Below, in pieces: positions 47,433 through 56,293 of a stretch of DNA of 64,000 bases. The number at the start of each line of letters is the position of its first letter. Position 1 is the first letter of the stretch. The stretch is taken from positions 1-64,000 of the IMG/VR virus record IMGVR_UViG_3300028591_000109; one strand, 5' to 3'. Made by a program: the position numbers and the translations under genes. Below the pieces are notes generated by a model that ran no database searches, was not told the DNA's origin, and was given only the letters and a program-made list of their open reading frames with translations. The stretch comes from a virus. Lineage: Duplodnaviria > Caudoviricetes.

Positions 47433-47873
47433 ATGGAAAATTGGATTTTAGTTAAAAACCTGGAAGGCAAAGATATAAAAGTTCGCCAGAGACGGGCTTA
47501 CGGTGACATCTTTGTTGACGAGCAAGGTAAGGAATACCTGGCGAATGTTCTTGACTTTACCGGCGCACGTCTTGCGATACCCGACTTCAACGAACAGAAT
47601 AAGGAGAGCCTGAATGCGCTGAAGGATATGATGAAGTCGATGGACGCCAAGGCTATTGCCGACCACAAGGCCGTGATTGCCGAGTTCGAGTATTGGAGAA
47701 AGCTGCGTAGTGAAATTTTCATGGAAATGTATCGCGACCACTTGGCCAAAAACGGCAGCAGAATGTCTGAGGACGATCTGCTGAACAAGGCGAAGTACCT
47801 TGTCAATCAGCTATGGCAACAAGACCAGGATTTCATATCTGACAAAAAGGTGTTTCATATTCCTGTCAAATGA
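47433..47873 (+). CDS. Hypothetical protein
   Basis: Co-oriented ORF with ATGA overlap to the next gene. Confidence 0.7.
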   Translation: MENWILVKNLEGKDIKVRQRRAYGDIFVDEQGKEYLANVLDFTGARLAIPDFNEQNKESLNALKDMMKSMDAKAIADHKAVIAEFEYWRKLRSEIFMEMYRDHLAKNGSRMSEDDLLNKAKYLVNQLWQQDQDFISDKKVFHIPVK

Positions 47874-49516
47874 ATAAAAAATTAACGCGCATGAAACAAA
47901 TAACTGCATTATACATCGACCTGTTCTGCGGGGCAGGCGGCACGTCGAGCGGCGTGGAGTATGCGCGGCTGGACGGGAGGAAGTGCGCCGAGGTGGTGGC
48001 GTGCGTCAACCACGACGCGAATGCCATCAAGTCGCACAAGGCAAACCATCCGCACACGCTCCACTTCACCGAGGACATCCGCACACTGGAGCTGTCGCCG
48101 ATGTTGAAGCATCTGGAGAAGAAGCGCCGGCAGTACCCCAAGGCAAAGGTGGTGCTGTGGGCGAGCCTTGAATGCACGAATTTCTCGAAGGCGAAGGGCG
48201 GACAGCCGCGCGATGCCGACAGCCGGACGCTGGCCGACCACCTGTTTCGCTACATCGAGGCGCTGCAGCCCGACTATATCCAGATTGAGAACGTGGAAGA
48301 GTTTATGTGCTGGGGTGCGCTCGACGAGAACGGCAAGCCCGTGAGCCGCGACCAGGGCAGCGACTACCTGCGGTGGGTGAGACAGGTGCAGGCCTACGGC
48401 TACGACTTCGACTGGCACGTGCTGAACGCTGCCGACTTCGGGGCCTACACAAGCCGTAAGCGCTTCTTCGGGCTGTTTGCTAAGAAGGGACTGCCGATAG
48501 CGTTCCCACATCAGACGTATGCCAAGCAGACCGTGGCTTTTGCGTCGCAGGCCGTCGGCAACCTCTTCCCCGACCAATACAAGCCGTGGCGGGCCGTGCG
48601 CGAGGTGCTCGACCTCGACGACGACGGCGAGAGCATCTTTGTGCGCCGCAAGCCGCTATGCGAGAAGACGCTGGAGCGCATCTATGCCGGACTGGTGAAG
48701 TTCGTGGCGGGAGGCAAGAAGCAGCACGAGGCGTGGATATTGAAGTACAACTCGATGAACCAGCAGAACCACCACAATGCGCCGTCCATCGACGAGCCGT
48801 GCCCCACGGTGGCTTGTCAGAACAGACTCGGACTGGTGAAGTGCCAGTTCCTCTCGAAGCAGTTCAGTGGCGACCCCGACAGCAAGAACATCGACATCGA
48901 GCAGCCCGCCGGCACCGTGACCACCATCGACCACCATGCCTTTGTGACGGCATACTATGGTAACGGATTCAACTCGTCGATTGACAGTCCGGCGCCCACC
49001 GTTACCACCAAGGACCGGATTTCGCTGGTAACGACAAAGTTCATGGATAACCAGTACGGCAAGAGTAAGCCGTCATCTATCGACGGGCCAGCGCCGACGC
49101 TTGTCAACAATCCCAAGCAGAAGATTGTGTCGGCGCAGTACCTGATGAACCCTCAGTACCAGAGCAACGGCGGCAGCATCGACAACCCTTGCTTCACGTT
49201 GATAGCGCGGATGGACAAGATGCCGCCTTATCTGATTACCACCAAGGAGGGTGCGGTGGTCATCGCCATCTATGAGAGCGACAGCCCGTGGACGCGCAAG
49301 GTGAAGGAGTTCATGGCCGCATACGGTATCGTTGACATCTGTATGCGTATGCTGAATATCGGCGAGCTGAAGCGCATCATGGGCTTCCCCACCGACTACG
49401 TGCTCATCGGCACCCAGGCCGAACAGAAGAAATACATCGGCAATGCCGTGGAGGTTAACATGAGCCGCGTGCTCTGCGAAGCCCTATGCAGGAAAATTAA
49501 GAATATGAACAAATAA
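47870..49516 (+). CDS. C5-cytosine DNA methyltransferase with five TRD-like repeats
   Basis: DLFCGAGG, ASLEC, IENV, R.R.F, RML...EL..IMGFP, IGNAV; repeats S/D-I-x-x-P-x-x-T. Confidence 0.9.
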   Translation: MNKKLTRMKQITALYIDLFCGAGGTSSGVEYARLDGRKCAEVVACVNHDANAIKSHKANHPHTLHFTEDIRTLELSPMLKHLEKKRRQYPKAKVVLWASLECTNFSKAKGGQPRDADSRTLADHLFRYIEALQPDYIQIENVEEFMCWGALDENGKPVSRDQGSDYLRWVRQVQAYGYDFDWHVLNAADFGAYTSRKRFFGLFAKKGLPIAFPHQTYAKQTVAFASQAVGNLFPDQYKPWRAVREVLDLDDDGESIFVRRKPLCEKTLERIYAGLVKFVAGGKKQHEAWILKYNSMNQQNHHNAPSIDEPCPTVACQNRLGLVKCQFLSKQFSGDPDSKNIDIEQPAGTVTTIDHHAFVTAYYGNGFNSSIDSPAPTVTTKDRISLVTTKFMDNQYGKSKPSSIDGPAPTLVNNPKQKIVSAQYLMNPQYQSNGGSIDNPCFTLIARMDKMPPYLITTKEGAVVIAIYESDSPWTRKVKEFMAAYGIVDICMRMLNIGELKRIMGFPTDYVLIGTQAEQKKYIGNAVEVNMSRVLCEALCRKIKNMNK

Positions 49517-53173: not shown

Positions 53174-53281
53174 TTTTTTAAACACGAATTGCCACGAATT
53201 GAACACGAATTTTTCACGAATAATCATTTATGGAAATTCATGGATAATTAACGGCAATTCGTGTTAAAACAAAAACAAGCA

Positions 53282-53707
53282 ATGAAGAAACAGAAAGTTT
53301 ATATCTCTGGCCCGATGACTTCGAGCGACAGCGAGGAGCAGGCGCGGAACGTTCAGGCGTTCCACGACTGCGCCACGCTGCTGCGGGCCTCGGGCTGCCG
53401 ACCCGTGAACCCGGCCAACGCCTGGCCCTGCCGGTTCAAGTGGCTCTACAAGGCGATGGAGCGCCTGCTGGGCGAGGACGGTGCCTACCGCACGGTGCTC
53501 GTCTATGACCTCTGGCTACTGTCCCGCTCGGACAACATCTGCATGATAGACGGCTGGCAGCTGTCGCGCGGCGCAAAGATTGAGGAGGGCTTCGCCTTCC
53601 GTCTCGGCATCGTCCGAAGTCACACCTACGACCCAAAGCAGAAGAAGCTCATGCCCTTTCAGAAAGACAAGAAGAAGCGTAAATTAGAAACATCAAACAA
53701 AGAATAG
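53282..53707 (+). CDS. DUF4406 / nucleoside deoxyribosyltransferase-like protein
   Basis: KVYISGPMT...VNPA...GW..SRGA.IE. Confidence 0.8.
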   Translation: MKKQKVYISGPMTSSDSEEQARNVQAFHDCATLLRASGCRPVNPANAWPCRFKWLYKAMERLLGEDGAYRTVLVYDLWLLSRSDNICMIDGWQLSRGAKIEEGFAFRLGIVRSHTYDPKQKKLMPFQKDKKKRKLETSNKE

Positions 53708-53711
53708 CAAA

Positions 53712-54122
53712 ATGGATCTTACAGGAACAATCATTCAAGTGATGCCCGCACAGTCGGGCGTCTCGCAGCGTAGCGGCAATCCGTGGATGTCGCAGGAGTA
53801 TGTCATGGAAGTGCCCGGCCAGTGGCCGCGCCACATCGTCTTCCGTATCTTCGGTGAAGACCGCATCAAGCAGTTCAACATTCAGCAAGGCGAGCAGAAC
53901 GTCACCATCCAGTTCGACATCGACGCACACGAGTACAACGGTCGCTGGTTTAACGAAATCCGCTGTTACAACGTGCTCCGATCAGTCGGGCAGCAGCCGT
54001 ATCAGCAGCAGGCTCAGCCGTCAGCCGTCAGCCCTCAGCCATCGCCGGCCCCATTCCCGCCGCAGGTGAACGCCCAGGGCCAGCCAGCAGGACAGCAGGG
54101 AACCGACGACCTGCCGTTCTGA
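53712..54122 (+). CDS. DUF3127 single-stranded DNA-binding protein
   Basis: G.S...GNPW..QEY...FDIDA.EYNGRWFN; C-terminal DDLPF. Confidence 0.85.
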   Translation: MDLTGTIIQVMPAQSGVSQRSGNPWMSQEYVMEVPGQWPRHIVFRIFGEDRIKQFNIQQGEQNVTIQFDIDAHEYNGRWFNEIRCYNVLRSVGQQPYQQQAQPSAVSPQPSPAPFPPQVNAQGQPAGQQGTDDLPF

Positions 54123-54809: not shown

Positions 54810-55880
54810 ATGACACATGCATCAGTATTCAGCGGCATCGGCGGCCCGGAGGTGGCGGCAAGCATGCTCGGATGGGAGAACCTGTTCCACTGCGAGATCA
54901 ATCCCTTCGGTCGCGCCGTGCTCGACTACTGGTACCCTAACGCAGAATCGTATGAAGACATCACAAAGACAGACTTCACAGAGTGGCGCGGACGCATCGA
55001 CGTGCTCACAGGCGGATTCCCCTGCCAGCCGTTCAGTTTTGCCGGGAAGCGACGAGGCGCGGATGATGACCGCTACCTCTGGCCTTTCATGTTTAAGTGC
55101 ATCGACCAGATCAGACCCACTTGGGTCGTTGGTGAAAACGTTGCTGGCATCGTCACGATGGTCGAGCAGGGCCAGACTATTGACATGGCGGACGCGCCAA
55201 CTTTGTTCGACGAGGACGGTGCCGTTCACCGATACGAATACCGCAGCACCTTCACCCTCGAACGAATCTGCCGTGACCTCGAAACGCACGGATACGATGT
55301 CCAGCCGGTGCTTATTCCAGCTTGTGCCGTCGGAGCCCCTCACAGACGAGACCGAGTGTTCATCGTCGGACGTAGAATTTCTGCCGACACCGAAAGCGTC
55401 GGACAACTCGACGGGGATAGGCAAGAACGAAGTGCCATACTTGGACGGTCACATCTGGAGGCGACCCAACGGGGTGTCGATGCGACTGAGTTCTATGGCA
55501 AATCGGAATCTCCTGCCGACACCTCAGATGCAGGACTACAACACGGGCATCAGTCAGAAGGCGAAGGCTGCAAAACTGGAGCGATACAAGGACAGGGGCA
55601 TAATCCCTTCTGGGACGTATATGCTCAGGCAGATGGCTATCGAGGGGAAACTGCCGAAGCCGAATGGTCTGGTTGTGCCGGAAACGGACGGTGGCAACAC
55701 TTCCCGACTGTCTCCCCTGTTCACCGAGGAAATGATGGGCTTCCCTTTGATGTGGACTGCCTTACCATACCTTTCACCAAATGGCGCAACGAGGCCCTCA
55801 AAGCCTACGGCAACGCCATCGTCCCGCAAGTGATGTACGAGATATTCCGCGCTATCGAGCAAGTAGAAAACGAAAGATAA
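54810..55880 (+). CDS. C5-cytosine methyltransferase alpha polypeptide (motifs I-VIII and X, no motif IX)
   Basis: SVFSGIGG, GGFPCQ, ENV, PHRRDR, YGNAIVP. Confidence 0.9.
   Translation: MTHASVFSGIGGPEVAASMLGWENLFHCEINPFGRAVLDYWYPNAESYEDITKTDFTEWRGRIDVLTGGFPCQPFSFAGKRRGADDDRYLWPFMFKCIDQIRPTWVVGENVAGIVTMVEQGQTIDMADAPTLFDEDGAVHRYEYRSTFTLERICRDLETHGYDVQPVLIPACAVGAPHRRDRVFIVGRRISADTESVGQLDGDRQERSAILGRSHLEATQRGVDATEFYGKSESPADTSDAGLQHGHQSEGEGCKTGAIQGQGHNPFWDVYAQADGYRGETAEAEWSGCAGNGRWQHFPTVSPVHRGNDGLPFDVDCLTIPFTKWRNEALKAYGNAIVPQVMYEIFRAIEQVENER
54817..55833 (+). CDS. Overlapping +1-frame beta polypeptide carrying TRD repeats and motif IX (true start uncertain)
   Basis: 338 codons open; LPTPKASD, LPTPQMQD, RLSPLFTEEMMGFPLMWT. 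Confidence 0.7.
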   Translation: MHQYSAASAARRWRQACSDGRTCSTARSIPSVAPCSTTGTLTQNRMKTSQRQTSQSGADASTCSQADSPASRSVLPGSDEARMMTATSGLSCLSASTRSDPLGSLVKTLLASSRWSSRARLLTWRTRQLCSTRTVPFTDTNTAAPSPSNESAVTSKRTDTMSSRCLFQLVPSEPLTDETECSSSDVEFLPTPKASDNSTGIGKNEVPYLDGHIWRRPNGVSMRLSSMANRNLLPTPQMQDYNTGISQKAKAAKLERYKDRGIIPSGTYMLRQMAIEGKLPKPNGLVVPETDGGNTSRLSPLFTEEMMGFPLMWTALPYLSPNGATRPSKPTATPSSRK

Positions 55881-55882
55881 TA

Positions 55883-56293
55883 ATGACAATGACAAAGAAA
55901 ACATCAACACCTATTGACCCGGAGTTCCAGAAGTTCTGGGACGCATACGGCCTGAAGCGCGACCGTGTGGCCGCCGAGCGGGCGTGGCGGAAGCTCTCGA
56001 AGGGCGACCGCCGCGCCGCCCTTGCGGGCATCGCCCGCTACCGCGACGACTGCGAGGCACGGGGCATCCAGCGCATGTACGCCCAAGGCTATCTGAACCA
56101 CCGACGGTGGGAGGATGAACAGGAAGACCCCACCCCGACCCTCCCCTGTATGGGAGGGAGTGATATGCACAGAAGCGACGCCACCGCCGCCAAAGGTAAC
56201 TACTCCCCTCCATCACAGGGAAAGGCTACGGGTAGGCGCGACAGCGGGAATGAGGACGGGGGTGGGTCTCTCCCCGACATGGCGATATGGTGA
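55883..56293 (+). CDS. Phage replication-protein C-terminal-like domain with REP-derived tail
   Basis: F..FW.AY..K.....AE.AW.KL...YLN.RRWEDE. Confidence 0.65.
   Translation: MTMTKKTSTPIDPEFQKFWDAYGLKRDRVAAERAWRKLSKGDRRAALAGIARYRDDCEARGIQRMYAQGYLNHRRWEDEQEDPTPTLPCMGGSDMHRSDATAAKGNYSPPSQGKATGRRDSGNEDGGGSLPDMAIW

Follow-up and report, generated by a model that had tools for sequence, protein, structure and literature searches.

Genes nested out of frame inside another gene of the same strand occur in phiX174, where B lies within A and E within D; the inner genes are started internally, and the functions encoded by the two frames are unrelated. Among the C5 DNA methyltransferases, M.AquI (CYCGRG) is a two-subunit enzyme that is split within the variable region (PMC3404938). 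Closer in its gene arrangement to the locus described here is M.EcoHK31I of E. coli HK31 (YGGCCR; Lee, Kam and Shaw 1995), a natural alpha/beta C5 methyltransferase whose beta gene lies wholly within the alpha gene in the other frame. As described in PMC2836561 and PMC3404938, both chains are needed, the N-terminal part of beta is required for its association with alpha, internal Met codons of beta can be used as starts, and the predicted TRD is in alpha.

We analyzed a 64,000-nucleotide stretch of DNA (the window) from a 141.6-kb virus genome, that of a Bacteroidota phage. An earlier reading of the sequence (the original prediction) had pointed to a C5 methyltransferase gene with a second frame open throughout it and had inferred an architecture like that of M.EcoHK31I. 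We propose that a single C5 DNA cytosine methyltransferase is encoded at the locus in the form of two polypeptides, alpha and beta, from the same strand in two frames, and we give this reading a probability of roughly 0.78. The translation of beta, the assembly of the chains, the methylation activity and the role of the beta N-terminal part are all inferred only, as there is no direct evidence of beta or of the inactivity of alpha alone. The features are collected in Table 1.

Table 1. Coordinates in the window of the two methyltransferase frames, their predicted motifs and the neighboring genes
Feature	Position	Strand	Remark
SSB	53712-54122		neighbor
Alpha ORF (frame A, 356 aa)	54810-55880	+	putative catalytic large domain: motifs I, IV, VI, VIII, linker, motif X
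Alpha motif I, FSGIGG	54828-54845	+	
Beta ORF (+1 frame, 293 aa + TGA)	54952-55833	+	wholly inside alpha; proposed small-domain chain
Alpha motif IV, GGFPCQPFS	55011-55037	+	includes the catalytic Cys
Beta N-terminal part, residues 37-134	55060-55353	+	over alpha motifs IV-VIII; both frames constrained
Second conserved +1-frame ATG (beta Met39)	55066-55068	+	possible alternative start
Alpha motif VI, ENV	55134-55142	+	
Alpha motif VIII, PHRRDRVFIVG	55338-55370	+	
Beta variable region with LPTPxxxD modules	55378-55668	+	at TRD position
Beta module FLPTPKASD	55378-55404	+	
Alpha linker, residues 193-292	55386-55685	+	low-complexity; sequence and length unconserved; stop-free
Beta module LLPTPQMQD	55510-55536	+	
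Beta degenerate module KLPKPNG	55648	+	
Beta motif IX block, SRLSPLFTEEMMGFPLMWT	55702-55758	+	aligns to canonical RRLTPREAARLQGFPDDY
Alpha motif X, YGNAIVPQV	55806-55832	+	overlapped by last codons and stop of beta
Replication-initiation-like gene	55883-56293		neighbor

In profile searches, alpha matched PF00145 (E 4.6e-35) and phrog_363 (E 2.5e-69), and more than 8000 protein clusters are homologous to it; the matches to PF00145 and TIGR00675 cover only residues 1 to ~190, and beyond that point family profiles meet alpha again only at motif X. Alpha could be aligned with M.HaeIII, M.HhaI and a canonical HMM, with motifs I (FxGxG, for AdoMet binding), IV (PCQ), VI (ENV) and VIII (RxR) all in frame A, and its motif X matched canonical GNAVPV in the alignment and satisfied the pattern GNxV/I. 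Motif IX and a recognition region between motifs VIII and X were absent from frame A, motif IX being found in the +1 frame only. Frame A has there a linker composed to 82% of G, S, E, D, Q, R, T, K, H, N, P and A, with 18% hydrophobic residues (G, A, E, D, S and Q predominate), and this linker differs in both sequence and length among alpha homologues, which range from 297 to 491 aa (alignment A1). One 562-aa alpha homologue in the same alignment, P0020, carries an internal duplication (YWFPNSKSYEDIT through motifs IV and VI; columns 180-270).

Much of what the original prediction had read from the letters stood up to this mapping. Both frames are open as it had claimed (frame A over the alpha ORF, the +1 frame over 54817-55833, 338 aa); the motifs that it had named in alpha (I, IV, VI, VIII and X) were all recovered, as were the lack of motif IX and the unstructured-looking variable region, which proved to be of low complexity; and the coordinates of the LPTPxxxD repeats and of the motif IX-like block that it had placed in the +1 frame, at the matching position, were confirmed.

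To score the readings against ordinary enzymes, we used an HMM built from 27 single-chain C5 methyltransferases and compared alpha alone, an alpha-beta-alpha hybrid and controls. The hybrid aligned end to end with the canonical HMM, and in this alignment SRLSPLFTEEMMGFPLMW of beta falls on motif IX (RRLTPREAARLQGFPDDY), immediately 5' of alpha motif X. The hybrid exceeded alpha alone by 8.6 bits, and did so in 37/37 genes, and it exceeded the control with a shuffled beta segment by 11.4 bits. Judged by these profile scores, the gain from the putative motif IX (~9 bits) is modest but consistent.

The number of LPTPxxxD modules differs among homologues, from 1 to 7 per gene, and the same LPTP cassette is found in different combinations among relatives. 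The second module of the window (55510-55668; LLPTPQMQDYNTGISQ...RQMAIEGKLPKP) recurs at 80-85% identity in P0121, P0122, P0123, P0126 and L001, whose other modules differ, a pattern that suggests cassette shuffling in the nested frame.

Beta itself is poorly covered by existing resources. Its sole profile match was to phrog_1008 (named DNA methyltransferase; E 8e-21), no match was obtained in Pfam or NCBIfam, and a beta profile searched against the PDB found no solved methyltransferase. Beta-type ORFs have been called in ~1100 clusters, with 937 matching cluster representatives, all without a Pfam family and named hypothetical. Nearly all of these relatives end where the match to beta ends, and none of the 150 best had a motif X in frame after motif IX. 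In the ESM Atlas, beta reached 0.94 with a viral hypothetical cluster and 0.85-0.86 with PF00145 clusters; such scores can also arise when a real gene is read in a wrong frame. AF2 modeling from a 60-sequence alignment gave a mean pLDDT of 59, with only residues 75-130 (strands) and 160-190 confident and motif IX unresolved, and the model yielded nothing usable from Foldseek against the PDB or from VIA-align wide (best Z 2.4), a result that does not point to a novel fold. A rare natural ORF that joins an alpha N-terminal part to a beta C-terminal part (P0412; 17-sequence alignment) was modeled with a mean pLDDT of 45, too low for use.

When cellular genomes were scanned with the beta profile, 80 loci were obtained, mostly from Bacteroidales, with some from Leptospira, Cloacimonadota, Actinomycetes, Chlorobiota, Pedobacter, Chitinophaga and Saccharibacteria. 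The motif IX pattern was matched by 70 of them, and in 63 of these the frame of motifs IV and X is one base behind that of motif IX; in none of the 70 were motifs IV, IX and X all in one frame. Both frames are open in 52 loci. The exceptions include three loci with one stop in beta, two fusions of the alpha N-terminal part to beta (L106 and L134) and one locus with a 1-nt indel in motif X (L036). Eight chromosomal Bacteroides copies (L116, L117, L119, L121-L124 and L126, from B. faecalis, B. xylanisolvens, B. faecis, B. reticulotermitis and relatives) have one or two stops in alpha, one located in the linker and the other arising immediately ahead of motif X by a TGG-to-TGA change; motif I has apparently been lost from them, and their beta frame is open for 335-353 codons. 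These copies could represent decay, or beta could be useful on its own.

The Bacteroides copies with a broken alpha bear on the possibility that beta is translated but is not a methyltransferase subunit at all, being instead a separate protein, for example, a DNA-binding or anti-restriction protein, overprinted on the gene. The N-terminal part of beta, which has no counterpart in canonical enzymes and whose fold is unresolved, would also fit such a protein. We nevertheless regard it as improbable: beta has exactly the motif IX and recognition region that are missing from alpha, ordered and placed as in canonical enzymes, 63/70 loci from several phyla preserve the pairing, and the precedent enzyme M.EcoHK31I is one in which neither chain suffices.

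Comparisons in the viral family bear on where the start of beta lies. For these comparisons, we fetched 80 viral loci with alpha, from which 40 distinct, delimitable genes were obtained (41-82% identity). The ATG at alpha codon 48 (54952 in the window) is kept in 38/40 homologues, the other two having GTG and ATA, and alpha Tyr48, on whose TAT codon this ATG depends, is written TAT in 39/40, whereas codon usage is mixed at the other conserved Tyr residues. The ATG has an A-rich leader, and it is the point at which avoidance of +1-frame stops begins in the family null described below. An upstream start at the ATG at 54817 was rejected; most homologues carry upstream +1-frame stops, at codon 9, 29 or 37, and the 54817 ATG is for this reason specific to the window. 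Thus, the 338-codon frame of the original prediction is indeed open in the window, but its conserved start is the ATG at 54952, and on the conservation evidence beta most likely begins there, as a protein of 293 aa, and not at 54817.

Because no constraint of their own was detected for beta residues 1-36, the true start of beta remains uncertain. The second conserved +1-frame ATG, at beta Met39, is kept by a GAT codon for alpha Asp86 in 36/40 homologues. An SD-like 4-mer (GAGG, GGAG or AGGA) precedes it in 38/40, against a background of 0.16, and this signal is confounded with the conserved SxEAR residues of beta; in the window (55045-55068), GAGG stands 5 nt 5' of the Met39 ATG. By analogy with the internal Met codons of M.EcoHK31I beta, Met39 may serve as an alternative start. 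The part of beta that lies downstream of residue 36 and over alpha motifs IV-VIII has several invariant residues (G44, L64, S67, W70, W79, S86, D114, S117 and L121).

The end-to-end alignment of the hybrid, which resembles a canonical monomeric C5 methyltransferase, would also be expected if a single chain were made through two programmed frameshifts, one of +1 after motif VIII and one of -1 after motif IX, such that the alpha N-terminal part, the beta modules with motif IX and alpha motif X were joined. The window does contain a CCCTTTG heptamer at GFPL. This heptamer is present in only ~14-19/36 homologues, the rest having TTTCCACCAG, and nothing is conserved after motif VIII; as no slippery site is conserved, the two-chain model is preferable to a double frameshift. 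Frameshifting would, moreover, leave unexplained the 140 stop-free and constrained +1-frame codons upstream of the supposed shift, the conserved +1-frame ATG and the stop-free frame A linker. The rare database chimeras of the alpha N-terminal part and beta change frame at many places, as random indels would. We consider a double frameshift quite improbable.

Alignment A4 contains a group of such near-identical genes (P0412, P0443, P0453 and P0463-P0474) in which the points of switching from frame A to frame B differ within ~20 codons, with at least seven junctions. An indel within that ~20-codon span would make reciprocal chimeras of alpha and beta. The junctions could be recurrent indels, tolerated since both frames are open, or assembly errors. 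Alignment A3, in which alpha and beta fragments are mixed, was misaligned by MAFFT and was left out.

How unusual an open +1 frame is can be judged from genes of the same kind. In the alpha gene, the +1 frame is interrupted by three stops, which are confined to the ends of the gene, and its open run measures 339 codons. The second C5 methyltransferase gene of the phage, at a G+C content of 0.58 (0.56 for alpha), has 26 stops in this frame and a longest run of 78 codons, and 26 canonical single-chain C5 methyltransferase genes of Bacteroidales have 15-40 stops and runs of 34-118 codons. In all 40 distinct viral homologues, +1-frame stops are confined to no more than the first 38 codons and to the last 20-30 codons; the +2 frame of the same genes has 10-33 stops. 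The original prediction had put weight on the +1 ORF staying open in homologues, and this it does in 40/40 distinct viral genes and in 52 of the 63 cellular-genome copies with the same frame layout.

For a family-wide null, we resampled synonymous codons from the alpha-only parts of the genes. The null fitted alpha codons 1-46, where 3.12 stops were expected and 2.90 were observed, and failed downstream of them: 1.82 +1-frame stops were expected over codons 48-86 and 6.09 over codons 86-192, and none was observed in either interval in 40/40 homologues. For the window by itself, synonymous permutation assigned no significance to the open +1 frame across alpha codons 48-190 (P ~0.5); the same test gave P values of ≤0.003 for homologues of lower G+C content. 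The evidence for a non-chance +1 frame is thus comparative, as it does not come from the window alone, and by these stop counts the open +1 frame is not due to chance.

Variation at the codon level bears on whether each frame is under selection. The synonymous codon entropy of alpha, controlled for degeneracy, amounts to 0.77-0.79 of the expected value for codons 1-72 and 325-350; where beta overlaps, it is 0.51 (codons 73-96), 0.41 (codons 97-120), 0.46 (codons 157-192) and 0.35 (codons 293-324). In codons 1-72 and 325-350 of alpha, the codon-position entropy follows the usual third-position pattern of frame A, and from beta residue 133 to 276, which takes in the LPTP and motif IX parts, the third position of beta is the most variable; the signature of variation at the beta wobble position is present in the motif IX block itself. 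Pairwise amino acid identity in frame B exceeds that in frame A for the module region (0.43 versus 0.31) and for motif IX (0.73 versus 0.61), and elsewhere frame B is the lower of the two. The frame A linker had no stops in 40 genes, against 1.2-9.8 expected if beta alone were coding; four loci that failed the motif X pattern were dropped from this test (L040 and L071, which are pattern misses; L036, because of its indel inside motif X; and L046). As the linker is unconserved in sequence and yet stop-free in frame A, both frames are apparently read through. We concluded that there is, in these patterns of variation, a separate signature of purifying selection on each frame.

That the +1 frame is untranslated and owes its openness to nucleotide-level constraint (codon bias, RNA structure or the composition of alpha) draws support from the nonsignificant result for the window alone and from the G+C richness of the window (0.56), and is barely credible given the permutation results at lower G+C, the failure of the family null only from the ATG onward, the 26 stops of the same-genome control gene at the same G+C, the variation on the +1-frame wobble in the module and motif IX parts and the fact that no reverse frame is kept open.

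Two antisense ORFs at the locus, 54822-55424 (minus strand, 200 aa) and 55554-55910 (minus strand, 118 aa), were rejected as genes. No reverse frame is kept open in the homologues, each having 4-27 stops, and the antisense ORFs are therefore most likely by-products of composition.

In the two-chain enzyme that we propose, alpha would form the catalytic large domain, with motifs I-VIII, a disordered linker of which only the absence of stops is needed, and the motif X helix. Translation of beta would begin within the alpha message, at the conserved ATG and perhaps at Met39 too, and beta would supply what alpha lacks, namely, motif IX and a variable set of LPTPxxxD recognition modules; its N-terminal part may hold the two chains together. 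Alpha and beta would then assemble, and the enzyme would methylate phage DNA, probably as protection from host restriction. No nuclease partner was seen near the methyltransferase, from which we infer that it is most likely a protective phage methyltransferase. With respect to the M.EcoHK31I-like architecture, the original prediction is supported: a nested beta with motif IX agrees with the openness of the frame in homologues and with the signs of selection. It is refined in that beta most likely starts at 54952, that the recognition modules lie here in beta, unlike the predicted TRD of M.EcoHK31I, and that beta is constrained over motifs IV-VIII as well.

Two other genes of the window may be relevant to DNA modification. 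A nucleoside 2-deoxyribosyltransferase-like gene (53261-53707, plus strand; phrog_355, E 1.3e-16) belongs, with the methyltransferase and the neighboring SSB and replication-initiation-like genes of Table 1, to one replication module and may bear on nucleotide or DNA modification. The second C5 methyltransferase gene, which served as the same-genome control (47870-49516, plus strand, 548 aa), encodes a single chain in whose frame both motif IX (RMLNIGELKRIMGFPTDY) and motif X are found; the variable region of this enzyme contains five SIDxPxPT-like repeats, possibly a sign of several recognition modules.

In each of the two frames of the locus, one part appears to be ancestral and the other to be overprinted. 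A wider account built on this, reciprocal overprinting, is possible but doubtful. The recognition region and motif IX of a single-chain ancestor would have been shifted into the +1 frame, where a new N-terminal part later arose over motifs IV-VIII; in their place, the main frame would have retained only a linker free of stops and of sequence requirements. The recognition chain, freed to swap LPTP cassettes, would have made the enzyme a modular, possibly multispecific, protective methyltransferase, and the layout would be the normal one, largely unannotated, in thousands of phage and prophage enzymes in several phyla.

Annotation does miss the second frame, as the original prediction had expected of standard gene callers: the protein collection has only alpha for this contig, and in the cultured Bacteroides phage BKO1-TP3, which has the same layout, a single CDS is annotated over it. 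Such annotation gives half of the enzyme and leaves the specificity-determining part in no gene, so that predictions of methylation specificity and restriction evasion made from such records are blind to it. A literature search found no paper that describes the two-frame layout across the family. Provided that both chains are made, one gene lies here inside another on the same strand over 880 nt, with ~240 codons under selection in two frames, and the layout is kept across a family that numbers over 8000 protein clusters, a spread that goes far past M.EcoHK31I, the one example from the laboratory. The family would then offer a large natural data set on the origin and maintenance of long overlapping genes and on the tolerance of a split enzyme for cassette exchange, and BKO1-TP3 on B. 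koreensis is a cultured phage-host pair with the same layout.

Set against known systems, what is new is the presence of the putative recognition modules in beta, the overlap over motifs IV-VIII and a layout that is the rule in a very large family; a nested beta had been proven for one E. coli enzyme. When read as alpha-beta-alpha, the locus has the same catalytic motifs in the same order as canonical monomers such as M.HhaI and M.HaeIII (PF00145), whereas those have 15-40 +1-frame stops, and their TRD and motif IX are encoded in the main frame. It resembles the phiX174 pairs in having one gene wholly inside another on the same strand, in a different frame and with an internal start, and it differs from them in that the frames would encode complementary parts of one enzyme, with an overlap of ~880 nt. 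With M.AquI it shares the division of a natural C5 methyltransferase into two polypeptides within the variable region; the small chain of M.AquI, however, contains both motifs IX and X and follows the large chain, whereas the small chain of the phage is nested and motif X is on the large chain. An M.AquI-type split, with IX and X together on the small subunit, is accordingly not what is seen, as motif X belongs to frame A both in the window and in 63/70 genome loci. The likeness is closest to M.EcoHK31I, the phage beta being nested in alpha on the same strand in the other frame and conserved in homologues. The M.EcoHK31I TRD, however, is predicted in alpha, where the phage enzyme has only an unconserved linker, its recognition-like modules being in beta; the phage beta, at 293 aa, also overlaps motifs IV-VIII; and M.EcoHK31I is part of a restriction-modification system, whereas the phage enzyme stands without a nuclease gene in view nearby, as a methyltransferase whose two chains would be encoded one within the other.
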